Shown one piece after another: positions 1-16,271 of a DNA stretch of 20,000 nt; positions within the stretch are counted from its first letter, which is position 1, and every line of letters starts with the position of its first letter. Where the stretch lies: the IMG/VR virus record IMGVR_UViG_3300047157_000170, one strand, 5' to 3'. The notes beneath the pieces are model-generated. The model saw nothing but the letters and a program-made list of their open reading frames with translations, had not been told where the DNA came from and searched no databases. The translations under genes and the position numbers were made by a program. The stretch comes from an uncultured virus (IMG/VR IMGVR_UViG_3300047157_000170) (lineage: Duplodnaviria; Heunggongvirae; Uroviricota; Caudoviricetes).

Positions 1-2
1 GA

Positions 3-110
3 AATATTCACACTGGTGATTTAAACCAAGCAATGAATGGAAAACCAACATTTAACGATGTCTTAGAGTTTAATGTCTTACCAGATGGAAATCTTGAATT
101 CCCTAAATAA
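3..110 (+). CDS. C-terminal end of an upstream gene (partial, unknown product)
   Basis: Frame 3 is open from the window edge (NIHTGDLNQAMNGKPTFNDVLEFNVLPDGNLEFPK) to TAA at 108-110. Confidence 0.55.
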   Translation, partial: NIHTGDLNQAMNGKPTFNDVLEFNVLPDGNLEFPK

Positions 111-149
111 CCTTATACAATCAACCTTTTTAGGCATCTTAGGAGAATC

Positions 150-401
150 ATGGAATTGGAATCAATACATTTACTTTGGAATTTAGTTCTAACTGGAATC
201 GTAGCCCCATTTGTGTGGTTCATAATGCAGTTACACAACGAGACAAAACGACTAGAAATATTACTGAATCGTACAAGAGAAGAAATGAATCGTGATTTTG
301 TTTCTAAAGAAGACTTAAAGAGAGACATGGAAAGAATGATGGACTCTTTAGACAACATCAATAAAAAAATAGACGATTTTTTACTTTCAAATCAAAAATA
401 A
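150..401 (+). CDS. Small membrane protein: N-terminal TM helix plus coiled coil
   Basis: 83 aa ORF with AGGAG RBS; hydrophobic LLWNLVLTGIVAPFVWFIM followed by a charged heptad-like region. Confidence 0.75.
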   Translation: MELESIHLLWNLVLTGIVAPFVWFIMQLHNETKRLEILLNRTREEMNRDFVSKEDLKRDMERMMDSLDNINKKIDDFLLSNQK

Positions 402-409
402 CATAAATA
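402..409 (+). promoter_or_regulatory. T4-type late promoter variant (CATAAATA) upstream of gp13
   Basis: One mismatch to TATAAATA, intergenic, upstream of a structural gene. Confidence 0.55.
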
Positions 410-445
410 GTATTAGAGAAAATAAATTTCTAATAGGATTATGTT

Positions 446-1261
446 ATGGCAGCTCCAAACAGCAAAGCAACACTTAAAGAATATGCATTAAGACAACTGG
501 GTAAACCAGTGTTAGATATCAATGTAGATGATGACCAGATTGATGATATCATCGATGATGCATTACAATATTTTGCAGAGTACCACTATGATGGTACTAT
601 TCGTACATTTTTAAAACATAAAATTAATGATAACGACCTTGCAAACCAAAAATCAAATGCAAGTATAGGTCAATCAACTACTGGTTCACATATATCAACT
701 AATATGACATATGAAGAAGGACAAGGATATGTTGTTCTTCCAGAATCAGTATTATCAGTATTAAGAATATTTCCATTTGTAGATAAGTCTGGACTTAATA
801 TGTTTGACTTAAGATATCAATTAAGACTAAACGACCTTTACGATATCTCTTCTACATCTATCATACAATATGAAATGGTACAAAACCATATTCAATTATT
901 GGACGAAATTCTAATCGGACAAGTTCCAATTAGATTTAATAAAGCACAAAACAGATTATACTTAGATATGGATTGGACAGCTGCAGTTACAGCTGGTGAA
1001 TATATTTTGATAGATTGTTATAGAAAAATAGACCCAACACAATTTACAGACATATACAACGATGTTTGGTTAAAAAAATATGTCACTGCATTAATTAAAA
1101 AACAATGGGGTCAGAACTTATCTAAGTTCGAAGGAATTCAATTGCCTGGCGGAGTTACTCTACAGGGTAGACAAATCCTAGAAGATGCAAACACAGAAAT
1201 TGAAAAGCTAGAAGAACAAAGTAATTTATTACAAACCGAATCTGCTCTAATGATGGGTTAA
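446..1261 (+). CDS. gp13: Neck protein gp13 (head-tail adaptor)
   Basis: LKEYALRQLGKPVLDINVDDDQIDDIIDDALQYF and WLKKYVTALIKKQWGQNLSKFEGIQLPGGVTLQG motifs; synteny. Confidence 0.95.
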   Translation: MAAPNSKATLKEYALRQLGKPVLDINVDDDQIDDIIDDALQYFAEYHYDGTIRTFLKHKINDNDLANQKSNASIGQSTTGSHISTNMTYEEGQGYVVLPESVLSVLRIFPFVDKSGLNMFDLRYQLRLNDLYDISSTSIIQYEMVQNHIQLLDEILIGQVPIRFNKAQNRLYLDMDWTAAVTAGEYILIDCYRKIDPTQFTDIYNDVWLKKYVTALIKKQWGQNLSKFEGIQLPGGVTLQGRQILEDANTEIEKLEEQSNLLQTESALMMG

Positions 1262-1265
1262 TATT

Positions 1266-2183
1266 ATGCCTACAAATGTATATTTTAATCATGCAGTTCA
1301 ATCAGAACAAAATTTGCATGAAGACTTGGTAGTAGAATCTCTTAGATTCTATGGACATGAGTGTTATTACTTACCACGAACAATCGTGGATGAGGATGAA
1401 CTCTTTGGTGAAGATACAGCATCTAAGTATGGTGATGCATATCAAGTAGAAATGTACATAGAAAATACCGAAGGATTTGATGGTGAGGGAGACCTACTAT
1501 CTAAATTTGGTGTAGAGGTAAGAGACCAAGCAACTTTTGTTCTATCAAGAAGAACATGGGATAGATTTGTATCATTAGATTCTAACCTTGCAGTAACAAC
1601 AAGACCCAACGAAGGTGATTTAATTTACTTTCCTCTGGGAAACCAAGTATTTGAAATAAGATTTGTAGAACATGAGAACCCATTCTACCAGTTGGGTAAA
1701 CTTAATGTATTCAAACTACAATGTGAAACCTTCGAATACTCACATGAAGAGATTGATGTCGGTATTGCAGAACTAGATAATATCGAAGACCAATTCTCAT
1801 ATCAAGTATCAATGACACTTGGTGCTGGTTCTGGAGACTTTGTAGTAGGTGAAACTGTAACACAAACAGTTGCAACTGGTAAAACTGTATCTGGTAATGT
1901 AGTAGATTACTCATCTCAAGGTGCAACTTCTAAAACACTTAAAGTTAATAATATTACATTTAGTGATACAGATGTACCAACTGGTAGTACTATGTTTGTA
2001 TTATCTGCACAAGCAGGTGCTGGTAATATTGTAGGTGCAACTTCTAATGCTACCAGAGCAATTACAACTGCACCAGACCAATATGCAATGCCTAATGACC
2101 CACTTGCAGATAATAAAGACTTTGAAACAGCAGGTTCTAATATCATAGACTTTAGTGAAAGCAACCCATTTGGAAACCTATAA
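1266..2183 (+). CDS. gp14: Neck protein gp14 (head closure)
   Basis: EQNLHEDLVVESLRFYG, DLLSKFGVEVRD, RPNEGDLIYFP, FVEHENPFYQLGK and C-terminal IIDFSESNPFG. Confidence 0.95.
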   Translation: MPTNVYFNHAVQSEQNLHEDLVVESLRFYGHECYYLPRTIVDEDELFGEDTASKYGDAYQVEMYIENTEGFDGEGDLLSKFGVEVRDQATFVLSRRTWDRFVSLDSNLAVTTRPNEGDLIYFPLGNQVFEIRFVEHENPFYQLGKLNVFKLQCETFEYSHEEIDVGIAELDNIEDQFSYQVSMTLGAGSGDFVVGETVTQTVATGKTVSGNVVDYSSQGATSKTLKVNNITFSDTDVPTGSTMFVLSAQAGAGNIVGATSNATRAITTAPDQYAMPNDPLADNKDFETAGSNIIDFSESNPFGNL

Positions 2184-2186
2184 ATA
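2179..2186 (+). promoter_or_regulatory. T4 late promoter TATAAATA
   Basis: Exact consensus overlapping the gp14 stop, 5 nt before the ATG at 2192. Confidence 0.75.
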
Positions 2187-2191
2187 TAATT

Positions 2192-2440
2192 ATGGCAATA
2201 TGGTATTTGAATATGTTACAAGAAGATGAAAAAAGAATGAAAGATTTTGACCAAAAGTATCACGATTATTGGCAAAGTAATCGAAGAGCAGAAGTATATA
2301 AAAGTGTTCAAGGACATTGGGGTGTTCGATTCTTCGAAGACAAGATGTGGGTAACAGATGAAATATATAAAGGACATAGTGAAGTATATGCAGAATCAGC
2401 TGCAGAGAATTATGTATTAGGAATCAAAAATGTTAGGTAA
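2192..2440 (+). CDS. Hypothetical protein between gp14 and gp15
   Basis: 82 aa ORF fills the gap, has its own late promoter and overlaps the gp15 start. Confidence 0.75.
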   Translation: MAIWYLNMLQEDEKRMKDFDQKYHDYWQSNRRAEVYKSVQGHWGVRFFEDKMWVTDEIYKGHSEVYAESAAENYVLGIKNVR

Positions 2441-3254
2441 AGCACATTTCTATCATGAAGCAATCAAAAGAGCAGTATCAGTATTTGGTACTATGTTCAA
2501 TGAGATTGATATTCAAAGAGATGTTGATGGGTCAGCAACTCAGAATGTAAGAGTTCCTTTATCTTATGGCCCTAAACAAAAGTTTATTGCAAGATTAGAT
2601 TCTGCCGCAGACCTTATGGACAATACAAAGTCAAGGGTTGCAATGACTTTACCAAGAATTGCATTTGATATTACAGGATTAACATACGATGCAGAAAGAA
2701 AACTTGGTAAATTAAAACAGTACAAACTGCATGATAGTAGTGATAATTCAGTTTTAAGAACACAGTTTGCACCAGTTCCTTATAATATAAACTTTGGTTT
2801 ATATGTTCTATCAAAGAATACCGAAGATGCATTACAGATTGTAGAACAAATTCTACCATTCTTTACACCAGACTTTACAGTTACAATGACTACAGTGCCA
2901 GGCACTAATGAGAAAAGGGATGTACCTATTATATTATCAGATGTATCTTATACAGACGAATACGAAGGAGACTTCCAATCTCGTAGAGTTATTACATGGA
3001 ATCTAAATTTTGAAATGAAAACATACCTATATGGTTCTATATCATCTTCTGAAATTATTAGAGATGTTCGTGCAAGAACCTATATATCAGACGATGGTCA
3101 AGTAGACTCGACTGCTGGGAGACAAAGTGAGATTAAACAAGTACCTAATCCAACTGGTGCAAGTCCAGAAACAAGTCCACTAAATATAACTGAAACAATA
3201 AACTTTTTTGATGGGAATGACTCAGACTATAATACTGATAAAACCAATATTTAA
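2430..3254 (+). CDS. gp15: Tail sheath stabiliser/terminator gp15
   Basis: HFYHEAIKRAVSVFGTMFNEI, VPLSYGPKQKFIARL, TLPRIAF, PVPYNINF and QIVEQILPFFTP motifs. Confidence 0.95.
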   Translation: MLGKAHFYHEAIKRAVSVFGTMFNEIDIQRDVDGSATQNVRVPLSYGPKQKFIARLDSAADLMDNTKSRVAMTLPRIAFDITGLTYDAERKLGKLKQYKLHDSSDNSVLRTQFAPVPYNINFGLYVLSKNTEDALQIVEQILPFFTPDFTVTMTTVPGTNEKRDVPIILSDVSYTDEYEGDFQSRRVITWNLNFEMKTYLYGSISSSEIIRDVRARTYISDDGQVDSTAGRQSEIKQVPNPTGASPETSPLNITETINFFDGNDSDYNTDKTNI

Positions 3255-3256
3255 TT

Positions 3257-3697
3257 ATGAAAAAATCTATAGATGAAAAACTAGATGAACTTCTAGACAT
3301 CAACAACGAAGCAGAAGAAGTCGTTAAAGAAACCAATAAACAACTCATTCCTAGGGACTCTGGTGGTCGTTTTGCAGAAAGGAAGGGTGAACAACAGGTT
3401 GACTATAAATACACCAGAAACACGCTGTATGGACTTGTAGAGAGGGGTCAAGATGCTATTGAAGGAATCCTAGACCTTGCAAAAGAAAGTGAACATCCGC
3501 GAACCTATGAGGTCGCAGGACAATTAATTAAAACAGTATCCGAAACATCTGAAAAGTTATTACAAATACAAAAGATGATGGACGATTTAGAAGATGATAA
3601 ACCCAAACACCAAACAACAAATCAAAACTTGTTTGTAGGGTCTACTGCTGAATTGCAGAAACTATTGAAGAAACAGAATGCCGAAACCGAAGAATGA
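3257..3697 (+). CDS. gp16: Terminase small subunit gp16
   Basis: DYKYTRNTLYGLVERGQDAI, EHPRTYEVAGQLIK and NLFVGSTAELQKLLK motifs. Confidence 0.95.
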   Translation: MKKSIDEKLDELLDINNEAEEVVKETNKQLIPRDSGGRFAERKGEQQVDYKYTRNTLYGLVERGQDAIEGILDLAKESEHPRTYEVAGQLIKTVSETSEKLLQIQKMMDDLEDDKPKHQTTNQNLFVGSTAELQKLLKKQNAETEE

Positions 3698-5279
3698 AGG
3701 ATATCTAGGTAATTCCCAAGTAAAAAGAAGTGGGGTTGCCGAAGAATGGGATGACCAAAAGGTTCAAGAGTATTTAAGATGTACTCGTGACCCAGCTTAT
3801 TTCATATCAAAATACATAAAAATCATATCACTAGATGAGGGGTTAGTACCATTCAAACTCTATGAATATCAAGAAAATCTTATTAATCACTTTAATGATA
3901 ACAGGTTTAACATTGTCCTTGCCTGTAGACAATCTGGAAAGTCAATCACAGTATGTGCCTACCTTCTTTGGTATCTCTTGTTCCACCCAGAACAAACAGT
4001 GGCCATACTTGCAAACAAAGGTGCTACAGCAAGAGAGATGTTATCTCGTATAACAACCATGTTGGAAAATGTACCATTCTTTTTACAGCCAGGCACTAAA
4101 GCACTAAACAAAGGAAGTATTGATTTTGAAAACAATTCTAGAATCCTTGCATCAGCAACTACTACATCATCGATTCGTGGTTTATCTGTTAACCTTCTTT
4201 ATCTTGATGAGTTTGCCTTTGTAGAAAATGCAGAACCATTTTATACTGGTACATATCCAGTAATTACATCTGGTAAAAACTCGAAGGTTATTATTACATC
4301 TACTGCAAATGGAGTGGGTAATATGTTCCATCGTATCTGGGAATCCTCAGTTACAGGGTCAAATGAGTTTGCAAACTACCAAGTTAACTGGAATGATGTG
4401 CCAGGCAGAGATGAAAGGTGGAAGGAAACTACCATTGCAAATACATCTGAGTTACAGTTTGAACAAGAATTTGGTAATTCGTTCTTAGGAACAGGGAGAA
4501 CATTAATACCATCTAATGTAATTTTAGGACTAATGTCTGAAAATCCTCAAGAATTATATGGTCAATGTAGGGTTTATAAAAAACCTAAACCCCATCATGA
4601 GTATATAATGACTGTTGATGTTGCAGAAGGTAAAGGATTAGACTACTCAACATTTACTATATTTGATATACATGATGGTAATATGTTTGAACAAGTATGT
4701 ACATTTAGAGATAATATGATATCTCCTATGTTATTACCAGATATATGTGCAAAATATGGTAAGTTATATAACGATGCACTTATTATCGTAGAGAATAATA
4801 ATCAAGGTACAATGGTATGTAGAGAGTTATATTACGAACTAGAATATGAAAATATGTTCATGACTAGTTCTGTAAAAGCAGATGGAATAGGAGTTAGAAT
4901 GACCAAGAAGGTCAAAGCACAGGGATGTGCAGCTCTTAGAGAGATAATGGAAGAGAATAAACTCTATATAAGAGACTCAGACACTATCCAAGAGTTTGCA
5001 ACCTTTGTATCAAAAGGACAATCTTGGCAAGCAGATGGTGGTTGTCATGACGATATGGTGATGAATTGTGTTATGTTTGCATGGTTTGTTAGTACACCAT
5101 TGTTTAAAGATATGTCAAGTGCAGACTTAAAATCTATGTTATATGCAGAAAAACAAAAAGAAATTGAAGACGATATAGTCCCAATAGGTATTATAGGTAC
5201 TGGTCATGATAAGTTATTCAAAGAAGGTGGAGATGTTTGGACAGTTGTGGATAATGATGACACTTATGGGACTTTTTAA
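3678..5279 (+). CDS. gp17: Terminase large subunit gp17
   Basis: Walker A CRQSGKS, Walker B LYLDEFAFV, ITSTANG coupling motif; nuclease motifs DVAEGKGLDYS and HDDMVM. Confidence 0.97.
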   Translation: MPKPKNEGYLGNSQVKRSGVAEEWDDQKVQEYLRCTRDPAYFISKYIKIISLDEGLVPFKLYEYQENLINHFNDNRFNIVLACRQSGKSITVCAYLLWYLLFHPEQTVAILANKGATAREMLSRITTMLENVPFFLQPGTKALNKGSIDFENNSRILASATTTSSIRGLSVNLLYLDEFAFVENAEPFYTGTYPVITSGKNSKVIITSTANGVGNMFHRIWESSVTGSNEFANYQVNWNDVPGRDERWKETTIANTSELQFEQEFGNSFLGTGRTLIPSNVILGLMSENPQELYGQCRVYKKPKPHHEYIMTVDVAEGKGLDYSTFTIFDIHDGNMFEQVCTFRDNMISPMLLPDICAKYGKLYNDALIIVENNNQGTMVCRELYYELEYENMFMTSSVKADGIGVRMTKKVKAQGCAALREIMEENKLYIRDSDTIQEFATFVSKGQSWQADGGCHDDMVMNCVMFAWFVSTPLFKDMSSADLKSMLYAEKQKEIEDDIVPIGIIGTGHDKLFKEGGDVWTVVDNDDTYGTF

Positions 5280-5291
5280 AATCAAAGAAAT

Positions 5292-5299
5292 ACTAAATA
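5292..5299 (+). promoter_or_regulatory. Late promoter variant (ACTAAATA) upstream of gp18
   Basis: TAAATA core in the intergenic region before the sheath gene. Confidence 0.55.
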
Positions 5300-5368
5300 C
5301 TATGGACGAACAACAATTAATGTGGTTCTGTCAGAATAGAAATAAACTTTTTATGGGAGAAAACTAAA

Positions 5369-7400
5369 ATGGCATTTCAAGTATCACCTGGCGTACAAGT
5401 CAGAGAAATCGATGTTACAAATGTAGTTCCAGCTATTTCATCAAGTATTGGTGCATTCGCTGGTGAATTTAGTTGGGGCCCAGTTGATGAAGTTAGAACT
5501 ATATCATCCGAGAAGGAATTGGTAGGAGTGTTTGGAGAACCTAAAGACGCAGGTAGCGATGGTTACAATACTGTACTTGGGAAGAAAGAACACTTTTATT
5601 CAGCTGCAAACTTTTTAAAATATGGAAATAATTTAAAAATAGTTCGTGGGCATAATGGTATTGCCGCAGGTCAAACTGGGCAAATGCTTAATGCAACAAC
5701 AGGTTCAGCTGGAATACTAATTAAAAACCCTACACATTACTATGAGTCAAACTACCATTCTGGTAGTGCAGCTGGTAGTGCTGGATTATTTTCAGCAAGA
5801 TGTGTTGGTTCTCTTGGTAATAGTTTAAAAATATCTATGTGTACAAGTGCTAATGCATTTCAACAAGCTTCTGTTACTACTGTTTCCGATAGTAGTATTT
5901 CAGTAGGTCATACACAAATTACTGTCGCAGATGGTACTAAATTTGTAGTTGGTGACTTAATTGCTTTTGCTAATTCAGCAGATGTATACAAAATATCAGC
6001 AATATCATCAAATGATATAACATTCCACTTAATCTCAGATAGTTCTCAAGGACTACAAGTTGTACCAACTAATGGTTCAAACATTTCTAGAGGGTGGGAA
6101 TTTGCAAGTAACTTTACTAAAGCTCCTGGCTCTAGTCCAGATGCAATTGCAAATAGTTCATCTTTAGATGAAGTACATGTCATTGTTATTGATGAAGATG
6201 GTAAGATTACAGGTATACCTGGCGAAATCTTAGAAGTATTTGAAGGTCTTTCACAAGCATCAGATGCTAAAGATGCAGAAGGTAACTCTAATTACTATGT
6301 TGATAAAATAAGATATAACTCTAATTACATTTTCTGGACAAACCACGATTCAACTACATCAGAAGCAGGAAACACATTTGCAGTTGCTGGAGCAGCTTTT
6401 GTACAACATACCTTACCTTTAGGTGGGTCTTTGTCACATGGAGTAGATGGATATCCTTTATCTTCTGGAGCAAAAAACACAGCAAACACCACATTTTTTG
6501 GTGATGCTGAAACTCAAGATGTTGACTTTATAATTGCAGGGCCCACTAGATGGGTATGCATCTGGTAGTGTAGTATCTACACTTGCAGAAGCAACAACTC
6601 AAGCAAATAATTTAATCGCATTATGTGAAGCACGAAAAGATTGCATGGCAGTCATTTCACCTCGTAAAGCTGATTGTGTAAACAACAGTGGAAGTGAGTC
6701 AACAAGTGTTATTGCATTTGCAGAAACATTAACTTCAAGTTCATATGCAGTAATGGATAGTGCATGGTGTTATCAGTACGATAAGTACACTGATAATTAC
6801 TGTTACATACCTTCTTGTTCACATACAGCAGGTGTAATGGCAAGAACTGATTCCGATAGGGATGCATGGTTCTCACCAGCAGGATTTAGTAGAGGACAAA
6901 TTTTAGGTATTACTAAATTATCCTTTAATCCTAATCAATCAGAAAGAGATGCACTATATAAGAAGAGAGTAAATCCATTAGTAACATTCCCTGGCCAAGG
7001 GACTGTATTGTTTGGAGATAAAACTTTACTTTCGAGTGCAAGTGCATTTGATAGAATTAATGTTAGAAGATTATTCATTGTCATGGAGAAAGCAATCGCA
7101 ACTGCAGCTAAATTCCAATTATTCGAATTTAACGATGCATTTACAAGAGCTCAATTTAGAGCAACGATTGAACCTTTCCTAAGACAAGTAAAAGGAAGAC
7201 GAGGAATAGTAGATTTCCAAGTTGTTTGTGATGACACAAATAACTCACAAGCAATTGTGGATGCAAATCAATTCCAAGCGTCTATTTTCGTTAAACCTAA
7301 TAGAAGTATCAACTTCATCACACTAAACTTCGTTGCAGCTAGGTCTGGTGTAGAATTCGAAGAAGTATATGGTGCAACTAATACCCAGTATGGAAACTAA
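5369..7400 (+). CDS. gp18: Tail sheath protein gp18 (1 nt insertion at ~6539-6541 splits the ORF; probable sequencing error)
   Basis: MAFQVSPGVQVREID start; C-terminal AWFSPAGFSRG, FDRINVRRLF and KPNRSINFITLNFVA. Removing one G from GCAGGGCCCA joins ORFs 5369-6568 and 6534-7400 (DFIIAGPLDG). Confidence 0.93.
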
Positions 7401-7410
7401 GGAGTAAGAC

Positions 7411-7908
7411 ATGGCAACTATAGATGAATTTAAGTCGCAGTTGATAGCTGGTGGAGTTCGTTCCAACAGATTTAAAGTCTTTGTACCTAGAATGGGTGAG
7501 AACATAGAATTTATGTGCAAAACTGCCGCAATTCCTGGCTCAACCCTTCCAGTAGTCGAAGTACCTTTTAGAGGTCATAGACTTAAAATTGCTGGGGATA
7601 GGACTTTCGAAGATTGGACAATTACAGTAATCAACGATGTAAACTTTACTGCTAGAACAGCAGTAGAACAATGGATGGAAAGCATACAAGAATTAGATAG
7701 TGGTGTTGGTGCAACTGACCTAGAATATCTAGTTTCAAGAGCAACTATATCTCAATTAAATAGGGATGACAGTATTATTGCAACATATGAGTTGTATAAT
7801 ATGTACCCTCAAACAGTAGCACAAATTGATTTATCATATGATACTGCTGATGAGATACAGACTTTTGATGTAACATTCAGTTATTCTCACTGGGAAAGAA
7901 CTCTTTAA
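7411..7908 (+). CDS. gp19: Tail tube protein gp19
   Basis: GGVRSNRFKV, VPFRGHRLKIAGDRTFEDWTITVIND and YPQTVAQIDLSYD motifs; AGGAG RBS. Confidence 0.96.
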   Translation: MATIDEFKSQLIAGGVRSNRFKVFVPRMGENIEFMCKTAAIPGSTLPVVEVPFRGHRLKIAGDRTFEDWTITVINDVNFTARTAVEQWMESIQELDSGVGATDLEYLVSRATISQLNRDDSIIATYELYNMYPQTVAQIDLSYDTADEIQTFDVTFSYSHWERTL

Positions 7909-7924
7909 TTAGAGTTCCTTCTTT
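7898..7924 (+). terminator. Possible intrinsic terminator/stem-loop after gp19
   Basis: GAACTCT-ttaatt-AGAGTTC 7 bp hairpin followed by CTTCTTT (weak U tract). Confidence 0.4.
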
Positions 7925-7929
7925 AGTGT

Positions 7930-7937
7930 TATAAATA
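7930..7937 (+). promoter_or_regulatory. T4 late promoter TATAAATA upstream of the portal gene
   Basis: Exact consensus, 6 nt before the ATG at 7944. Confidence 0.8.
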
Positions 7938-7943
7938 TATATT

Positions 7944-9470
7944 ATGGAAATATTTGGATTTGAAATAAAGAGGAAAGACGCAGAGGAACTAGCACCATCC
8001 TTTGTTGCTCCTATTAATGACGATGGAGCTCAAGTTTTAGAAGTTGGGCAAGGTGGTTATGCAATAGGTGGCGGAATGGCCCAAGGGACATTCGTAGACA
8101 TGGAAGGTGGAATTAAGTCTGAACAAGACTTGATTCTAAGATACCGAACAATGTCATTGATACCAGAGGTTGATATGGCAATTGACGATATCGTTCAAGA
8201 AGCAATTTCTTCTAATGATTTAGATGCACAGGTTGGTATCAATCTAGATGCAACTAAACTTTCAGATTCAATTAAATCCAAGGTTAGGGATGAATTCTCA
8301 GAGGTCTTACGACTTTTGAGATTCAACCAGACCTCTTCTGAAATATTCAGAAAGTGGTATGTAGATGGAAGGATGTACTTCCACTTACTAGTCGACCCAA
8401 AGAGTCCTAAAAAAGGTATCGTTGGGTTAAGAATGATTGACCCTCTTCAAATGAAAAAGGTCAGAGAAGTTAGTAAGAAAAAAGATAAGAATGGTGTAGA
8501 AATTGTAGACAAAGTAAAAGAGTTCTACACTTATAATCAAAGTGGTTTTGAGAAAAACCAGTCCTATGGTGGACAGGGTGGTCAGACCCTTATGATATCA
8601 CCAGATGCAGTTGTTTACACTACCTCTGGAATGATGGATGCAAACAGACGAAACATCATCGGTTATATGCACAAAGGATTGAAAGCAGCTAACCAATTAA
8701 GAATGATGGAAGATGCACTTGTTATTTACAGAATATCAAGAGCTCCAGAAAGAAGAATATTCTACATTGATGTAGGTAATCTTCCGAAGGCAAAAGCAGA
8801 ACAGTATCTTGCAGATACTATGACTAGATATAAGAATAAACTAGTCTACAATGCAGATACAGGTGAAGTCAGAGATGATAGAAAACATATGAGTATGTTG
8901 GAAGATTTCTGGTTACCAAGAAGAGAAGGTGGAAGAGGAACAGAGATTACCACCTTGCCTGGCGGTCAGAACCTAGGTGAAATAGAAGATATTATATACT
9001 TCCAAAGAAAACTGTTCCGAAGTTTAAATGTACCTATCTCTAGGTTAGAAACTGAAAGTGGTTTCTCTTTAGGTAGGACAACTGAGATATCAAGAGATGA
9101 GGTTAAGTTCTCAAGATTTGTAGATAGACTCAGAATGAAGTTTAGTAGTATGTTTATGGATATATTACGAACTCAGTTGGCACTGAAAGGAATTATGCCA
9201 ATTGAAGAATGGGAACTTGAGAAAGAGAACATTAGGTTCGATTATCAAAAAGATTCTCATTTTGTAGAAATGAAGGATGCTGAAATCTTAAGAGAAAGGG
9301 TAACTTCATTAAGGGAGTTGGATGAGTTTGTTGGTAAATACTATTCTCAACAATGGATTAGAAAGAATGTTCTTAGACAATCCGAAGAAGAAATAGAAAT
9401 GATTGATGGACAAATCGAAGACGAAAAAAATAACGAAGATGGGGAAGGAGAGGACTCCTTTGACATGTAA
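7944..9470 (+). CDS. gp20: Portal protein gp20
   Basis: MEIFGFEIKR start; NQLRMMEDALVIYRISRAPERRIFYIDVGNLPK and EDFWLPRREGGRGTEITTLPGGQNLG. Confidence 0.98.
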   Translation: MEIFGFEIKRKDAEELAPSFVAPINDDGAQVLEVGQGGYAIGGGMAQGTFVDMEGGIKSEQDLILRYRTMSLIPEVDMAIDDIVQEAISSNDLDAQVGINLDATKLSDSIKSKVRDEFSEVLRLLRFNQTSSEIFRKWYVDGRMYFHLLVDPKSPKKGIVGLRMIDPLQMKKVREVSKKKDKNGVEIVDKVKEFYTYNQSGFEKNQSYGGQGGQTLMISPDAVVYTTSGMMDANRRNIIGYMHKGLKAANQLRMMEDALVIYRISRAPERRIFYIDVGNLPKAKAEQYLADTMTRYKNKLVYNADTGEVRDDRKHMSMLEDFWLPRREGGRGTEITTLPGGQNLGEIEDIIYFQRKLFRSLNVPISRLETESGFSLGRTTEISRDEVKFSRFVDRLRMKFSSMFMDILRTQLALKGIMPIEEWELEKENIRFDYQKDSHFVEMKDAEILRERVTSLRELDEFVGKYYSQQWIRKNVLRQSEEEIEMIDGQIEDEKNNEDGEGEDSFDM

Positions 9471-9483
9471 GAGGTAAAATATT

Positions 9484-9666
9484 ATGGCAAGAGAAGATGT
9501 TAAAAAAGTAATAGATTCAATTGAAGCAGGTGATAATGTTAGTGCATCTAACGCTTTTAGTTCAGCTATGGTTGATAAACAAAAAGAAGCAATCGATACT
9601 AAAAGATTGGATGTTCAACTGGATTGGTTAAACAAACAGGAACAACCAGCAAATGAAGAAGTTTAA
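9484..9666 (+). CDS. Small prohead core protein, gp67-like
   Basis: 60 aa acidic ORF right after the portal gene, GAGG RBS; assigned by position. Confidence 0.6.
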   Translation: MAREDVKKVIDSIEAGDNVSASNAFSSAMVDKQKEAIDTKRLDVQLDWLNKQEQPANEEV

Positions 9667-10024
9667 AGAATTAGTTCAATCATTAGATGAAGTGAAAAAA
9701 TTCAAATTACCTCGTGGTGAACAAGAGGTAGATTCCTACATGGAAAAAGGTGCAAAAGGAAAGAAAGTACCTATTGTTATTGCAAAAAAATCTAATAAAT
9801 ATAAAGTTTATGTAGATGGGCAAGAACTTGCAGTTTACAATAATGAAAAGTTAGCAAGGAAGAATGCAAGAGAGTTAATAAAATTATTAGGAGAAGACCT
9901 TAGTGATTTTATAGAAGAAGTTTTAGATGAACCGAAGATAGAAGATACTCTTGGGTTCTCAAATGGTTTGAAAGGTAATCAAACCTACAACGATGTTGCA
10001 GAAAAGATTGCAACTATAAAATAG
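9653..10024 (+). CDS. Hypothetical head-module protein (gp68-like position)
   Basis: 123 aa ORF between gp67-like and gp21; MKKFKEL N-terminus is typical of T4-like head-associated proteins. Confidence 0.55.
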   Translation: MKKFKELVQSLDEVKKFKLPRGEQEVDSYMEKGAKGKKVPIVIAKKSNKYKVYVDGQELAVYNNEKLARKNARELIKLLGEDLSDFIEEVLDEPKIEDTLGFSNGLKGNQTYNDVAEKIATIK

Positions 10025-10032
10025 GAGAAGAC

Positions 10033-10685
10033 ATGTTTTTAATTTCAGAACAACAATCAGAAGAAGTAAATCTTATTACTGAGGTTAATAAAAATGGTGG
10101 TAAGGATACTTTCATTGAAGGTGTTTTTCTCCAAACAAATTTAAAAAACAGAAATGGTCGTGTTTACCCAATGGATATCATGGAAAATGAGGTAAATCGA
10201 TACAATAAAGAATTCATTAAGAAGAATCGTGCATATGGGGAACTGGGACATCCAGAAGGCGCCCTACCATCAATTTAGAAAGAGTTAGTCATTTGATTAC
10301 CTCTTTAGAGAAAGATGGTAACAATTTTGTCGGTAAGGCAAAAATAATGAATACTCCAATGGGTAATATAGTTAAAGGACTGTTGAATGATGGTGCTAAA
10401 CTAGGCGTGTCCAGTAGGGGTATGGGGTCAGTATCCCAGAAAAACGATGCACAATATGTCCAGAAAGATTTCATGCTTGCAACTGCAGCTGATATCGTGG
10501 CAGACCCTTCTGCACCAGATGCTTTTGTAGATGGTATTATGGAAGGTGTTGAGTGGATAAATGAAAGCGGTGTAATTAAAGCCGTAGAGATTGAATCATG
10601 GAAAGACCAGATTCGACAAACCAAACAGCGCCAATTGGATGAGAAGAAATTAGAAATTATGAAAAGTTTCTTCTCTAAACTATAA
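10033..10685 (+). CDS. gp21: Prohead protease gp21 (2 nt insertion at ~10260-10262; probable sequencing error)
   Basis: IEGVFLQ..KNRNGRVYP, AYGELGHP, LGVSSRGMGS and DIVADPSAPDAFV. Deleting 2 nt from GAAGGCGCCCT restores the conserved HPEGPTINLERVSH. Confidence 0.93.
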
Positions 10686-10689
10686 AAGT

Positions 10690-10697
10690 TATAAATA
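10690..10697 (+). promoter_or_regulatory. T4 late promoter TATAAATA upstream of gp22
   Basis: Exact consensus in the intergenic region. Confidence 0.8.
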
Positions 10698-10763
10698 CAT
10701 AGTAAAGAACAAATAATTCGTTCTTAATTTGTAATTATAGAAATTTACATAGGGGATAAACAC

Positions 10764-12103
10764 ATGTCAGATGAAATTAAAAATCAAGACGAAGTAATGG
10801 AAGCGTCAGCTCCTGTTGCTAATAAGGGTGTTGTTACTCCAGAAAAAGACCCAGAGAAATCTTCTCTTGCATCTGTTGATAAAGCAGGTGATGCTACTAA
10901 ACCTAGCAAAAAGAGAAAAGGTGATAAAGACCAAAAAGATGCACCTCAAAAATTATCAGCTTCTTATAAAGAAGATACAGATAGTGAAGAGGAAATCGTA
11001 GTTGAAGATTTAACTAAGATGGAAGCATTAAGGAAAATCATTGAAGAACTCAAAGGTTTTGAAAAGGAAGACATCCAGTCCTTAGTCAATGAAATGATGA
11101 AGAAAGATGACGAAGATGAAGACGATGAAGATGAAGATGAAAAATCTGAGTCAACAAAGGCTGACCTTCTAAAGAAAATTGCTGAACATTTCAAATCAGA
11201 GGACGAAGAAGTTGTGAAAGAATCTTTAACTGCAATCTTAGAAGCATCTCATAAAAGATGACGAAGAAGACGAAGACGAAGAAGAGATGGATGAAGCTAC
11301 TAAGAAAGAAGCTTCTGACGAAGATGACGAAGACGAAGACGAAGACGAAGATGAAAAATCTGAATCTTACGACATGTCAGACGACATCGATGCTCTAGTC
11401 GGTGGTGAAGACCTTTCAGAAGAATTCAAATCAAAAGCAAAAAACAGTTTTCCAAGCTGCTGTATCTGCAAAAGTTAGTGAAATCAAAGAAAACCTTGAA
11501 TCTCAAAAGAGAGACGAGATTGTTGAAGCATCTAACGAACTTAAAGAAGAGTTAATCAATAAGGTTGATTCATTCTTAGGTTATGTTGCAGAAGAGTGGG
11601 TTAAAGATAACGAACTTGCAATTGAAAGAGGACTTAAGTCTGAGTTAACAGAAAACTTTATACAAGGACTTAAATCATTATTTGAAGACCATTATGTTGA
11701 AGTTCCAGACGACAAATTAGATGTTGTTGACGAACTTGCAAGTAAAATCGAAGAAGTAGAAGCTAAACTAAATGAAGAAGTTTCTAAAAACATCGATTTA
11801 TCTCAAGAAAGAGATGAACTTGTTAGAACACAAGTGGTTGGACAGGTTTCCAAAGACCTCACTGAAAGTGAAGTCGAGAAACTTACAAAGTTAATTGAAG
11901 ACATCGACCAAGATGAAGATTTTGAGTCTAATGTTAAAACAATTAAGGAATCTTACTTTAGTGACTCTAAAGAGACATTACAGTTAGATGAAGAAGTGGT
12001 TAGTGATAGCGATGAAAATACTTCGACCAAGGTAAACCTTGACCCAAGTATGGCTGCATATTCTGCCGCATTAGGAAAAGTTGACCCTAACAAATATAGA
12101 TAG
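10764..12103 (+). CDS. gp22: Prohead scaffold protein gp22 (two extra A residues in homopolymers at ~11253-11256 and ~11439-11444)
   Basis: EDLSEEFKSKAKTVFQAAV, VDSFLGYVAEEWVKDNELAIERGLKSELTENFIQGLKSLFEDHYVEVP and C-terminal MAAYSAAL. Three ORF pieces join on removing one A at each site. Confidence 0.9.
11101..11367 (+). repeat. Acidic low-complexity GAA/GAC/GAT tracts; two of them end in ..DEDEKSES
   Basis: GAAGATGAAAAATCTGA occurs at ~11132 and ~11347, each after a (GAAGAY)n run; a third acidic tract lies at ~11257-11286. Confidence 0.8.
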
Positions 12104-12112
12104 GTCAATTTT
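12081..12112 (+). other. Stem-loop spanning the gp22 stop, upstream of gp23
   Basis: TTGACC(C)TA ... TAGGTCAA inverted repeat followed by TTTT; could be a terminator or an mRNA processing/stability element. Confidence 0.35.
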
Positions 12113-12151
12113 AAATATTAACACTTTTTAAAAATTAAGGGGATACATAAA

Positions 12152-13210
12152 ATGTTTATGTCAGAAACTTTACAAGAGAAGTGGCAGCCAGTATTGAGTC
12201 ATCCAGATTTACCAGAAATCACTGACCCATACAAAAAAGCTGTAACTTCTGTGGTTCTTGAGAACCAAGAAAGAGCCTTTAACGAAGAAAATGGAATCCA
12301 AGGATTAACTGAGGATGCACCAATCAATAACGCTGGTGGCGCTGTTGGTGGAACAGGTGTAGACAACTGGAATCCTATTCTAATTTCTTTAGTTCGTAGG
12401 TCTCTTCCAAACCTAATCGCATACGACATCTGTGGTGTGCAACCAATGACTGGCCCCTACAGGATTAGTATTCTGTATGAAGGCTAGATATAACGATAAT
12501 ACTTCAAGACTTGCAATGTCAGAAGCATTATTTAACGAAGCTGATTCAGATTTCTCTGGAGCAGGAACACAAGCAGGTACAGACCCATTCGGTGATGCAG
12601 CTGCTTATGCAACTGGTACTGGTATGACTACTGGTGCGGCAGAAGCAAAAGGTGACAGTGCGTCAAACGCATTTGCATCTATGGCTTTCACAATTGAGAA
12701 AGCAACTGTTACTGCTAAGTCTAGAGCTCTTAAAGCTGAATACACAATCGAACTTGCACAAGACCTTAAAGCAATTCATGGTCTTGACGCTGAAACAGAA
12801 CTTGCAAATATCTTATCTGCTGAAATCTTAGCTGAAATCAACAGAGAAGTTGTAAGAACTGTTAACTTGCAAGCAAAAGCTGGTGCTCAAACTGGTGTTG
12901 CTAACGCAGGTAGATTCGACCTAGATGTTGATTCATCTGGTAGATGGTCAGTTGAGAAGTTCAAAGGCATGCTTTTCCAAATTGAGAGAGATGCTAATGT
13001 AATCGCAAGAGAGTCAAGAAGAGGAAAAGGTAACTTTATCCTTTGTTCTTCTGATGTAGCTTCTGCATTGTCAATGGCAGGAATGCTTGACTATGCTCCA
13101 GCACTTAACACTGAATTAACAGTTGACGATGCTGGTAACACTTTTGTTGGTGTTCTAAATGGTAAGTACAAAGTGTACATTGACCCATATTACACTCTTG
13201 ACCCAGTAAG
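12152..13210 (+). CDS. gp23: Major capsid protein gp23: extra C at ~12454-12457, and truncated at ~13210 (C-terminal part absent)
   Basis: LQEKWQPVL, PILISLVRRSLPNLIAYDICGVQPMTGPTGLVF, KSRALKAEYTIELAQDLKAIHGLDAETELANILS, GRWSVEKFKG and KVYIDPY. The usual downstream DAGxFYCPYVPL / FQPKIGFKTRYG segment is missing. Confidence 0.93.
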
Positions 13211-13310
13211 CGGAAGTAGGAAGATAGGAAAACCTCTTTCTTTAAAATTTAAAGAAAGGCAAGCAAGTACCGATAAGGGAACGAGACCGAATATCTACCG
13301 AAGGAACGCG
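13211..13310 (+). ncRNA. Glutamine riboswitch-like RNA (glnA / Downstream-peptide family): 3' portion with expanded P3
   Basis: CGGAAGTAGG...CCGAAGGAACGCG matches the conserved GGAAGUA..GAAG(G/C)AACG core (loop E AGUA/GAA plus the 3' strand of P1). P3 pairs GG/CC and AGATA/TATCT. An RBS and YRG peptide follow. The 5' P1 strand and P2 are not found. Confidence 0.7.
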
Positions 13311-13373
13311 TTGAGAAGGGTGTATATCGTTAGGATGCATGTACGAAATCGAAACGAAAACTGGAGGCACGAT

Positions 13374-13403
13374 ATGACTACTTATAGAGGTATCAAAGTC
13401 ACA
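13374..13403 (+). CDS. Start of a YRG-motif small peptide (DUF4278-like), MTTYRGIKVT, running in frame into the gp3 fragment
   Basis: GGAGG at 13363-13367 and ATG at 13374; an N-terminal YRG motif is characteristic of peptides downstream of glutamine riboswitches. Confidence 0.65.
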
Positions 13404-13703
13404 TGGATGTCTCAACTTACTAGTTCTACAGACCCAGAGAAGTTTAGAAGTCTTGTAGGTGCAAATAGAAGAGCAGATTTACCATATGATGGTAGTGGTG
13501 ATTACGATGCATTGTATTCAGATATGACAATCGTAGTGACTACAGCTGCAAATAATCCCAATAGATATATAAGAATAGAAGGTGCATTTCCTACATCGTT
13601 AGGTGAAATTACAATGGATACTACTGTAGCAGGTGGTTTATCATATGTAACTTGTACTGCATCTTTCCAATTTACAAACTTTGAAATAGCATCCACATCA
13701 TAA
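13404..13703 (+). pseudogene. gp3: C-terminal half of tail tube terminator/tail completion protein gp3 (N-terminus absent)
   Basis: WM...LYSDMTIVVTTAANNP...AFPTSLGEITMD...YVTCTASFQFTNFEI matches the gp3 C-terminus; position immediately before uvsY is canonical. Confidence 0.8.
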
Positions 13704-13709
13704 AATAAG

Positions 13710-13737
13710 TGGACAAATACCAGTTTAATGGTATAAT
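13710..13737 (+). promoter_or_regulatory. Sigma70-like early promoter for uvsY
   Basis: TGGACA (13710-15), 16 nt spacer, TGn-extended TATAAT (13732-37). Confidence 0.7.
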
Positions 13738-13743
13738 TATAGT

Positions 13744-14193
13744 ATGACATTAGAACAAATACAATCTATGTGGAAGGAAGATTCTGTAATCGACCAAATC
13801 GATTTAGATAAGGCATCTTTACAGACACCCTCTCTACATGCAAAATATCTAGAACTCCTAAACGAAAAGAGACTATCTCTTAAATCGTATGAGGTCAAGT
13901 ATAATCAACTTTTAAAGACTAAGTGGATGTGGTACACTGATAAGTTATCTAAAGAGGAAATAGATGACTTAGGGTGGTCTTACGACCCATTTGATGGGTA
14001 CAACAAACCTTTAAAGTCTGATTATAGTTATTACTTCAATGCAGATAAAGATTTGTCTGATATGAAACTAAAAGTCGAATATCTTACAGAGTGTGTAGAT
14101 GCTTTGAAAGAGATACTAAATATTATCACATGGAGACATCAATCAATAAAGAATGCAATTGATTGGTTAAAATTTACTAACCCAGCTGGTTAA
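13744..14193 (+). CDS. uvsY: Recombination mediator UvsY
   Basis: MTLEQIQSMWKEDSVID, SLQTPSLHAKYL and WRHQSIKNAIDWLKF; position between gp3 and uvsW. Confidence 0.92.
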   Translation: MTLEQIQSMWKEDSVIDQIDLDKASLQTPSLHAKYLELLNEKRLSLKSYEVKYNQLLKTKWMWYTDKLSKEEIDDLGWSYDPFDGYNKPLKSDYSYYFNADKDLSDMKLKVEYLTECVDALKEILNIITWRHQSIKNAIDWLKFTNPAG

Positions 14194-14199
14194 TACATT

Positions 14200-14865
14200 A
14201 TGCCCTCATTTCTTCCAGAACCTTTAATCATACAGTCTCGTGCAATATCACCAGATATATGTAATGAAATTATACAGTTGGGTTTAGAAAAATCTGAATT
14301 AAGTTTTGGACAAATTGGTGGTGGTGATGATGGATTTGAAGAACATAAAACTCGTAAATCTGGTGTGGGATGGATGGATAGAAATGCAGTACTCTCAGAT
14401 GGTAAATCATTATTTGACCACATTACACCAGTAATTAGAGATGTTAATTCAGAATCTTTTAAGTTTGATTTAAATTATCATGAATCATATCAGTTTACAG
14501 TATATAAAGCACCAGATGAACATTATGAGTGGCATTGTGATGGACATTTTATACCTTACACAGAAGAAGAATGTAAGAATGACCCAGATGCAGAATCAAG
14601 AATTGGTGGATATAGAAAACTTTCATATAGTGTAAATCTTACACATCCTAATGAATATGAGGGTGGTCATTTTGAATATGTTGATGCATATGGAGTAAAT
14701 CCATTAAATGACCCAGAAAGGTCAGTCATGAGAGTTCCACAAAGTGCAAGAGAACAAGGAAGTATAATCATATTTCCATCTTTTGTATATCACAGAGTAA
14801 CACCAGTAACACATGGTAGGAGACATTCCTTAGTAGGATGGATAGCAGGGCCGACATTCAGATAA
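14200..14865 (+). CDS. 2OG-Fe(II) oxygenase (prolyl-4-hydroxylase/PKHD-like)
   Basis: HxD (WHCDG), RKLS, YEGG, and FPSFVYHRVTPVTHGRRHSLVGW with the distal His and the 2OG-binding RxS. Confidence 0.92.
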   Translation: MPSFLPEPLIIQSRAISPDICNEIIQLGLEKSELSFGQIGGGDDGFEEHKTRKSGVGWMDRNAVLSDGKSLFDHITPVIRDVNSESFKFDLNYHESYQFTVYKAPDEHYEWHCDGHFIPYTEEECKNDPDAESRIGGYRKLSYSVNLTHPNEYEGGHFEYVDAYGVNPLNDPERSVMRVPQSAREQGSIIIFPSFVYHRVTPVTHGRRHSLVGWIAGPTFR

Positions 14866-16271
14866 CCAAAATCGACAATACTCATATAAAGGTAGATGCA
14901 GATGAATCTATCAAAAGAGAGTTGTCTGATTATTTTACTTTCCCAGTGCCTGGCGCAAAGTTCATGCCATCTGTACGAAATAAGTATTGGGATGGTAATA
15001 TAAGACTATTTGCACAAACTACTGGTAAGTTGTATGTTGGTTTATACTATGCACTAGAACAATTTGCAAAAGACCGAGACTACAACATGGAAGGTTATCA
15101 GTGGGAAACTGATATAGAATATCCAGACTTTACCGATGGATTAAACATGGGATTTCCTTTGAGAGACTATCAAGTGGATGCAGTAACAAGAGGTATTAAA
15201 TATAGAAGACAATTGTTAGTATCTCCAACTGCAAGTGGTAAGTCTGCAATCATATATTGTATTGCAAGACATTTCATATCTATGCATAAAAAGAGAGTGT
15301 TGGTAATCGTACCTACAACATCACTAGTAGAACAAATGTCAAAAGACTTTGCAGATTATGGGTATGATAGACCTATTGATAAGATGTATGGTGGTGCAAA
15401 GGTAGGAGATACCGATATAGTAGTAACTACTTGGCAGACCCTATCCAAAATGCCGAAATCGTTCTACGATGGTTTTGGTGCAGTGTTTGGTGATGAAGCA
15501 CACTTATTCAAAGCAAAAGTACTTACTGGTATTATGGAGAAGATGAAAGATATTGGTCATAGGTGGGGATTAACTGGTACATTAGATGATACTCAAACAC
15601 ATAAGTTAGTACTAGAAGGTTTGTTTGGCCCTACACATTATGTGACTACTAGTGCAGACCTTATGGATGAAGGTATCCTTGCAGAGTTAGATATACAATG
15701 TTTAGTATTAAAATATCCACCAGAGGTATCTAAAGAAGTTGTATCTATGGATTATCCTAGAGAAATGGAATTCCTTGCTGGTAATGAAAAACGAACACAA
15801 TTTATAAAGAACCTTACATTAGGTCAGAAAGGAAATACATTAATACTATTTCAATATGTAGATAAACATGGTAGGAAAATATACGAGACATTTCAAAAAT
15901 CTGGTATTAAATCGTTTTTTATCTATGGTGGAACAGATACAATCAATAGAGAAAAGGTCAGAGAGTTGATGGAAAAGGAAGAAGGATGTGTAATCATTGC
16001 ATCATATGGTACTTTTTCTACAGGTATAAATATTAAGAACCTACACAACATTGTGTTTGCAAGTCCTAGTAAATCTAAGATTCGTGTATTACAATCAATT
16101 GGTAGGGTTCTGAGAACAAGTAAAGATAAAGTCAATGCAACTCTTTTTGATATTGCAGATGACTTAAGTTATAAAAAGAAAGAGAATTATACTCTTAGAC
16201 ACTTTAAAGAACGAATAAATACATATAGTAAAGAAAAATTTAAATATACAATACATGAGGTAAAGTTTTGA
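14838..16271 (+). CDS. uvsW: SF2 DNA helicase UvsW
   Basis: WDGNIRLF, LRDYQ, SPTASGKS, DEAH, GLTGT, SYGTFSTGINIKNLHN and LQSIGRVLR. Confidence 0.96.
   Translation: MDSRADIQITKIDNTHIKVDADESIKRELSDYFTFPVPGAKFMPSVRNKYWDGNIRLFAQTTGKLYVGLYYALEQFAKDRDYNMEGYQWETDIEYPDFTDGLNMGFPLRDYQVDAVTRGIKYRRQLLVSPTASGKSAIIYCIARHFISMHKKRVLVIVPTTSLVEQMSKDFADYGYDRPIDKMYGGAKVGDTDIVVTTWQTLSKMPKSFYDGFGAVFGDEAHLFKAKVLTGIMEKMKDIGHRWGLTGTLDDTQTHKLVLEGLFGPTHYVTTSADLMDEGILAELDIQCLVLKYPPEVSKEVVSMDYPREMEFLAGNEKRTQFIKNLTLGQKGNTLILFQYVDKHGRKIYETFQKSGIKSFFIYGGTDTINREKVRELMEKEEGCVIIASYGTFSTGINIKNLHNIVFASPSKSKIRVLQSIGRVLRTSKDKVNATLFDIADDLSYKKKENYTLRHFKERINTYSKEKFKYTIHEVKF

Follow-up and report, generated by a model that had tools for sequence, protein, structure and literature searches.

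Among the closest described systems is the gifB/IF17 leader of Synechocystis (RF01739), from which glutamine enhances protein synthesis (Klahn et al. 2018, PMC6212724). The abstract of that work calls these riboswitches exclusive to cyanobacterial genomes, while its text adds marine metagenomes and notes that short IF17-like proteins are missing the C-terminal portion required to bind glutamine synthetase. For SAR86, a mention of RF01739 appears in PMC12379486. With regard to phages, glutamine riboswitches were published for Melnitz-like phages and pelagimyophages by Buchholz and colleagues (2022, PMC9004378) and are stated for T4-like cyanophages (PMC9964418), and their occurrence in marine T4-like phages is already published. 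Our literature search, which covered papers without their supplements, found none on phage DUF4278 peptides, and none on glutamine synthetase inactivating factors in cyanophages was on topic by its title or the start of its abstract.

The locus described here lies in a 20,000-nt stretch of an uncultured virus (IMG/VR record IMGVR_UViG_3300047157_000170), hereafter the window, to which all coordinates refer; the features from gp23 to gp3 described below lie on its plus strand. Its intact relatives share with the gifB leader the core strands, the P1/P2/P3 plan and the DUF4278 ORF that follows. However, the window copy lacks the 5′ strand of P1 and the whole of P2, and the members found here carry a 64–98-nt domain instead of the P3 loop of approximately 6 nt. 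In contrast to the distribution stated in PMC6212724, these members occur in SAR86-labelled genomes and T4-like phages. Melnitz (52.8 bits) and Mosig (50.0 bits) are likewise marine T4-like phages with RF01739, but their aptamers are short and canonical and lie at a locus other than gp23–gp3; in the gp23–gp3 intervals of HTVC008M, Melnitz and Mosig no riboswitch was found, only terminators. Melnitz (L026) has a single aptamer followed by a basic non-YRG ORF of 32 aa, MTLYQQWCYLKAQKEYRRRQKILMYFRIRLKG.

The riboswitch fragment and its genomic context

Profile matches place the window in the late-gene region of a T4-like marine myovirus, with genes for neck proteins, gp15, terminase subunits, gp18, gp19, gp20, gp21, gp22 and gp23, followed 3′ of gp23 by a gp3-like piece, UvsY, a 2OG-Fe(II) oxygenase, UvsW, gp55, gp47 and gp46. 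By DNA, the closest named phages are the pelagimyophages HTVC008M and Mosig and the Methylophilales phage Melnitz, with approximately 70% identity in gp23. Within the scaffold gene gp22, the acidic repeat region (11250–11444) shows several 1-nt gaps against two related genomes, G001 and G004, and the gene is split into ORFs at 10764–11261 and 11402–12103, through either variation or error.

The major capsid gene gp23 (12152–13210; PHROG 138 and Pfam Gp23, PF07068) is split by a frameshift, an extra C near 12454–12457 relative to G001 and G004, and is missing its last ~85 codons. The gene for gp3, a tail completion protein of the tail-tube family, is present from 13400 to 13703 without its first ~93 codons. 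From 13400 onward it is 99–100% identical to contig C7 of G001 and to G004, and it matches PHROG 45 at profile positions 177–254 alone; the intact N-terminus is present in G001 (92 aa, i.e. about 92–93 codons) and in L021. An ORF of 408 aa (12477–13703) runs through both genes and is a fusion, in which residues 1–244 belong to gp23 (Pfam model positions 40–303, so that the match ends at position 303 of 376), residues 300–404 belong to the tail-tube/gp3 family, and the middle is unmatched. The late promoter TATAAATA does not occur from 10697 to 16025, and 12900–13900 contains no terminator-like site.

Four motifs lie in this region, namely CGGAAGTAGG at 13211–13220, CCGAAGGAACGCG at 13298–13310, GGAGG at 13363–13367, and ATG ACT ACT TAT AGA GGT from 13374. 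The pattern GGAAGTAGG-N60-90-CGAAGGAACG has a single match in the window and was not produced by any of 200 dinucleotide-preserving shuffles. A cmscan of the whole window gave no Rfam match at gathering scores, and no glutamine family appeared at E≤10 in the uncut region 12900–13800. Cutting the stretch at 13205 allowed Infernal to score truncated matches, and RF01739 then matched 13205–13312 with 18.7 bits (E=0.081) at model positions 17–53 of 53, flagged as 5′-cut and below the Rfam gathering cut-off of 35 bits. The score is low and the match 5′-cut because the window has neither P2 nor the 5′ strand of P1; the likeness to the family is thus genuine, although this copy is not a full one. RF01704 (Glutamine-II/Downstream-peptide) gave no match at E≤10 in either 12900–13800 or the stretch cut at 13205.

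The 5′ core strand of the aptamer, CGGAAGUAGG (13211–13220), aligns to RF01739 positions 22–32, is invariant in all 53 aligned elements, and provides the 5′ side of P3 with its last GG. It is followed by an expanded P3 domain of 77 nt (13221–13297), compared with a loop of 6 nt in the RF01739 model, which was delimited by parsing and pairing tables and by compensatory changes in relatives. This domain is built from a P3 extension (AGAUA, 13222–13226, with UAUCU, 13292–13296), the junction strand GAAAACC (13228–13234), hairpin Pa (13235–13259), the junction strand CAAGCAAGUA (13260–13269), the weak hairpin Pb (13270–13278) and the junction strand GAACGAGACCGA (13279–13290). The 3′ core strand (13298–13310) supplies the 3′ side of P3 (CC) and the 3′ strand of P1 (GAACG, 13304–13308). 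Both conserved core strands, ACGGAAGUAGG and CCGAAGGAACGC, thus flank P3 and match the RF01739 consensus exactly. The P1 partner CGUUC is absent from the window, and gp23 coding sequence directly adjoins 13211; the helix CGUUC/GAACG is kept in 50 of 50 aligned full copies (its second pair in 49). Absent as well is the P2 hairpin, which separates the 5′ strand of P1 from the core and takes 23 distinct forms of 4–8 bp in relatives.

Alignment and platform folds place the linker and expression platform at 13311–13373, with the conserved ACGAAAUCGAAACGAAAAC and the Shine-Dalgarno site GGAGG. Hairpin Pc (about 13320–13345) is broken in the window, where position 13324 is a private A and one base is inserted at 13329; four of four metagenome runs have G at 13324 and one base fewer at 13329, and with those readings Pc pairs. 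The last part, 13374–13399, is the start of a YRG-repeat DUF4278 peptide (first 8–9 codons, MTTYRGIKV), which relatives continue as MTTYRGIKVT(K/S/P)EN... to 53–54 aa. In the window, the frame instead continues into the last 100 codons of gp3 (residues 94 to end), and the resulting ORF (13374–13703) matches no family at E≤10, DUF4278 (PF14105) included.

Judged by its motifs and alignment, the stretch 13211–13399 is a genuine fragment of a glutamine riboswitch/YRG-peptide cassette, which comprises the 3′ two thirds of a type-1 aptamer (RF01739) together with its linker, the Shine-Dalgarno site and the opening 8–9 codons of the YRG gene. As the reading frame stands, no YRG peptide can be made from it. 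With all of P2 and the 5′ half of P1 gone, the aptamer's glutamine pocket cannot close, and neither glutamine binding nor regulation would be expected; incomplete and placed between two truncated structural genes, the window copy should not be able to work. The preliminary description had proposed a phage-borne, glutamine-riboswitch-like metabolite sensor controlling a YRG peptide, hidden inside a false 408-aa ORF. All four of its motifs were located, its derivation from a glutamine riboswitch is borne out by the partial RF01739 match and the shuffles, MTTYRG is indeed the start of a DUF4278-type peptide that relatives complete, and the 408-aa ORF is false. In the covariance-model search that it proposed, RF01739 gave a 5′-cut match under the cut-off and the Downstream-peptide model found nothing. 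Its working sensor is not supported for this record, which has no P1 5′ strand, P2, promoter or terminator, a score below the Rfam cut-off and 8–9 peptide codons.

Intact cassettes and the expanded P3 domain

The nearest of the genomes searched, G001, covers the region on two contigs with 100% identity over 12100–13213 and 99% over 13400–13800. Past 13210, it has 85 more gp23 codons to the stop, a terminator, TATAAATA and the first 92 gp3 codons. The corresponding interval measures 605 nt in G001 and 1019 nt in L021 compared with 186 nt in the window, and the 189-base piece (13211–13399) stands where near-identical relatives have 605–1019 nt. Six IMG/VR contigs have flanks that are 99–100% identical to the window (L017, L019, L020 with 94% upstream, L021, L022 and L025), and L024, with flanks of 88–90% identity, has the same cassette. 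Its order is full-length gp23, terminator, TATAAATA, small hairpin, CGTTCA, P2 hairpin, CGGAAGTAGG, an insert of 73–75 nt, CCGAAGGAACGC, a 60-nt linker, GGAGG, an ORF of 54 aa (MTTYRGIKVTKENLHIEKSKPQSGIYRGVKHDAIKSVSSKGSKEGIYRGTRHVA), terminator, TATAAATA and full gp3. RF01739 matches this intact cassette over the whole model with 49.0 bits (L054, the only one of the gp23–gp3 cassettes scored) and five other full copies with 40.8–46.7 bits, against the cut-off of 35. The lineage's own cassette thus shares site, architecture and the peptide start MTTYRGIKVT with the window, but it forms a complete unit under a late promoter, and the window piece is only 83.5–86% identical to it. The preliminary description had proposed to recover the missing 5′ part and the full peptide from homologous gp23–gp3 intervals; the CGTTC P1 strand, P2 and the whole 54-aa peptide are present at this site in intact relatives, and that check therefore succeeds.

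Among phages 97–100% identical in their flanks, the gp23–gp3 site is polymorphic. In L018 (a 63-kb contig; G004) the YRG gene is kept and TATAAATA is joined directly to the Shine-Dalgarno region without a riboswitch, and no Rfam match was obtained in L127 (G004). G001 (L004) has neither the riboswitch nor the YRG gene there, and neither a copy of the 201-nt stretch nor an RF01739 match over the cut-off was found in G001 or G002. Searches of 50,697 phage records with the 54-aa peptide (tblastn) and the phage cassette (blastn) gave no match, a weak negative given the short, low-complexity query. In another T4-like contig of 99 kb (L012; G003), in the region 1180–5549, a riboswitch and YRG unit is convergent to gp23, with approximately 900 nt without long ORFs between the two; its upstream genes, named by eye from the sequence, are IscU-like and IscA/HesB-like.

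By analogy with the gifB leader, the intact cassettes would work as glutamine-ON translational switches. A T4-type late promoter, TATAAATA, would drive the leader RNA, and its aptamer would bind glutamine and turn on translation of the YRG peptide. This YRG-repeat DUF4278 (IF17-like) peptide of 40–57 aa presumably acts on host nitrogen assimilation. When compared with Pfam DUF4278, five full peptides from relatives scored 22–31.4 bits, with one of the five above the cut-off of 25.3, and DUF4278 was the only family at E≤10.

For a wider view, the pattern CGGAAGTAGG-N55-116-CCGAAGGAACGC was used, which retrieved 93 IMG/VR loci (L029–L121) that reduce to 52 unique elements. The expanded P3 domain together with a YRG-repeat ORF (35–57 aa where complete) is present in 50 of these; in the remaining two (L036 and L047), canonical aptamers stand in tandem and are followed by a different, basic ORF of approximately 32 aa and not by a YRG peptide. 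In place of the P3 loop, the expanded domain forms a three-way junction. Its P3 extension occurs with 23 distinct arm pairs (e.g., UAG/CUA, AAAC/GUUU, UAGA/UCUA, UAAAG/CUUUA and AAGA/UCUU) and a mean helix of 4.3 bp, compared with 3.0 bp for cross-paired arms. Hairpin Pa takes 32 distinct forms, with one pair being U-A in 27, C-G in 22 and A-U in 1, and hairpin Pb takes 26; the linker hairpin Pc covaries as well. The junction strands are nearly invariant (GAAAACC, AAGC(N)AAGUA and GAAC(N)GAGACCGA). RNAalifold on a MAFFT alignment recovered P1, P2 and Pa and mis-paired the invariant strands, and the P3 extension and Pb were obtained by manual parsing. Thermodynamic folds of the 50 full elements, with structures printed for 12, gave inconsistent partners for the Shine-Dalgarno site, and therefore no specific sequestering helix is claimed.

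In species genomes, the corresponding N55-85 pattern gave 71 loci (L128–L198). The three-way-junction type accounts for 37, with 34 labelled SAR86 and 3 unclassified Gammaproteobacteria by a count of titles, and tandem aptamers account for 15. Other long P3 inserts were found in the remaining 19 (Halieaceae, OM182, Methylococcaceae-labelled MAGs, filamentous cyanobacteria and others; L130, L136, L144, L145, L148, L157, L162, L167, L173 and L175 among them), many of which are followed by YRG-repeat ORFs, and P3 expansion is therefore recurrent. Within 400 nt of the element, a gp23 C-terminus was found in 17 and a gp3 N-terminus in 19 of the 93 IMG/VR loci; neither was found in any of the 71 genome loci. 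Taken from the pairing tables and genome labels, an RF01739 class with an expanded, covarying P3 three-way junction is common to SAR86-labelled genomes and marine T4-like phages.

Origin of the 189-nt piece and interpretation of its joins

The piece 13211–13399 finds its best match, at 97.9% identity, in the 312,950-nt contig L131, which is labelled SAR86 cluster bacterium; identity is 97.4% with L123 and L124, both from metagenomes, and 95.2% with the SAR86 loci L172, L187 and L146. These SAR86-type copies have the same P3 domain and peptide start and are complete RF01739 members (45.2–46.0 bits), unlike the window copy, and no structural genes of phages lie beside them. In the metagenome contigs L122–L125, a sigma-70-type promoter (TTGAAA-17-TATAAT) precedes the element and the full 54-aa YRG peptide follows; outside the cassette allele they have no match to window positions 11500–15000, and a DNA search with L122 in G003 and G004 returned only the cassette itself. 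The window's allele is absent from the 75 IMG/VR loci with the same insert length, and its Pb segment, CCGATAAGG, was seen only in the window. With its best matches in SAR86-type loci and phage sequence on either side, the window thus reads as phage, 189 nt of a SAR86-type locus, and phage again, and nucleotide identity assigns the piece to the bacterial type of SAR86 and not to the phage lineage's allele at this site. The left junction lies at 13210/13211 and the right at 13399/13400, both in non-homologous sequence, outside homologous stretches and without useful microhomology.

Logan contigs from four runs (X1–X4) of four studies were aligned on 12900–13750; the best of them holds 0.69 of the sampled window words. 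In all four, the gp23 contig continues past 13210 as intact gp23 (TGGTCACAACAACGAAGG...), and in X1 the intact gp3 N-terminal sequence precedes the gp3 part. A 1335-nt contig of X4 over 13211–13314 is preceded by the P2 hairpin sequence of SAR86-type copies, and contigs over 13340–13399 or 13340–13402 run on into the rest of the YRG gene. A 4421-nt contig of X2 has the phage-type Shine-Dalgarno region and start, with the gp3 part 466 nt further on, and is the natural cassette–gp3 arrangement. No contig of X1–X4 bridges 13210/13211 or 13399/13400; since such contigs drop rare variants, this does not prove that the joins are absent.

The record has further private defects. Over window positions 1–11053, G002 is 99.96% identical with only two gaps, which are an extra G near 6539 (6539–6541, gp18) and an extra GC near 10259 (10259–10261, gp21) in the window; the extra C in gp23 is a third private insertion. 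At all three sites the relatives read GGCCC, and every one of the insertions disrupts the reading frame, so that several essential genes are affected besides the gp23/gp3 replacement. These GGCCC-site insertions look like a systematic sequencing or base-calling fault, or like sequence damage.

Four accounts of the locus can be weighed against these data. That the motifs are a chance look-alike within a coding region, as an open, purine-rich frame might permit, is refuted: the motif pair occurs in none of the 200 shuffles, and the stretch is 95–98% identical over 189 nt to full RF01739 members, which leaves this account with practically no probability. The view that the phage has a functional glutamine riboswitch after its capsid gene, serving a small YRG protein or a YRG–gp3 fusion, could point to the intact core strands, Shine-Dalgarno site and start codon and to close relatives with exactly such a unit at this site. 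Yet half of the P1 helix and all of P2 are gone, 18.7 bits stand against a cut-off of 35 with no full-length match at E≤10 in 12900–13800, Pc is disrupted, promoter and terminator are both absent, and after codon 9 the ORF is gp3 from residue 94 to its end, without DUF4278 at E≤10. We regard a working switch as very improbable. The stretch 13211–13399 is most likely a dead fragment of a cassette of the kind found on SAR86 chromosomes, sitting between a gp23 without its last ~85 codons and a gp3 without its first ~93.

How this fragment came to lie there is less one-sided. The two joins probably reflect a fault of this record, for instance a chimera, a mis-assembly or an error in sequence handling, rather than how a viable phage is built. 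Against such a fault, the foreign piece is a homologue of the phage lineage's own cassette at this very site, and a random chimera would need great luck to place it there; the ORF also stays open across the piece for approximately 55 codons, by our own estimate roughly a 1-in-14 event. The same homology suggests a process guided by relatedness and speaks for a real mosaic, in which illegitimate recombination at the homologous cassette of a T4-like phage brought in 189 nt from a riboswitch/YRG locus of SAR86 type, leaving a defective genome without functional gp23 and gp3. T4-like phages recombine heavily, and near-identical phages differ at this site between a full cassette, a YRG gene without riboswitch (L018) and nothing (G001). 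However, neither join falls in homologous sequence and together they ruin two essential genes, the same record contains other private frame-breaking errors, and the nearest genome with the phage DNA has cyanobacterial photosystem genes and is no SAR86 genome. The junction 25- and 26-mers had no match in IMG/VR and the left junction word none in metagenome contigs, in collections from which the window's own record may be left out; this is weak evidence that the joins are unique to the record. Overall, a defective mosaic appears doubtful, and that the join records an exchange between a marine T4-like phage and a SAR86 chromosome exactly at their shared glutamine-riboswitch/YRG cassette site is more doubtful still.

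Host signals and consequences

G001 contains PsaA/PsaB (1189 bits) and a gene of the photosystem II CP47/CP43 family (901 bits). Among its contigs C129, C46, C4 and C7, these photosystem genes stand alongside contigs that are 97–100% identical to the phage, and G001 therefore looks cyanobacterial. Neither psbA nor psbD was found in G001–G004, all four of which are incomplete. Judged from gene content and nucleotide identity, the cassette type points to SAR86 and G001 points to cyanobacteria, so that the two host signals conflict.

For annotation, the record calls for a warning, as it is faulty, with two essential genes truncated and three frameshifted. It would be wrong to annotate the window element as a functional sensor of the phage or to list the 408-aa ORF as a protein. 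If the join were real after all, it would be a frozen snapshot of a host-to-phage capture that shows how the cassette moves, and it would tie an uncultured phage lineage to SAR86 as its host. Apart from this record, near-identical phages carry a complete, late-promoter glutamine riboswitch with a YRG peptide between gp23 and gp3, at a site that is polymorphic among them. The sharing of the expanded-P3 class by SAR86-labelled genomes and T4-like phages has implications for host assignment and for the function of the additional RNA domain.
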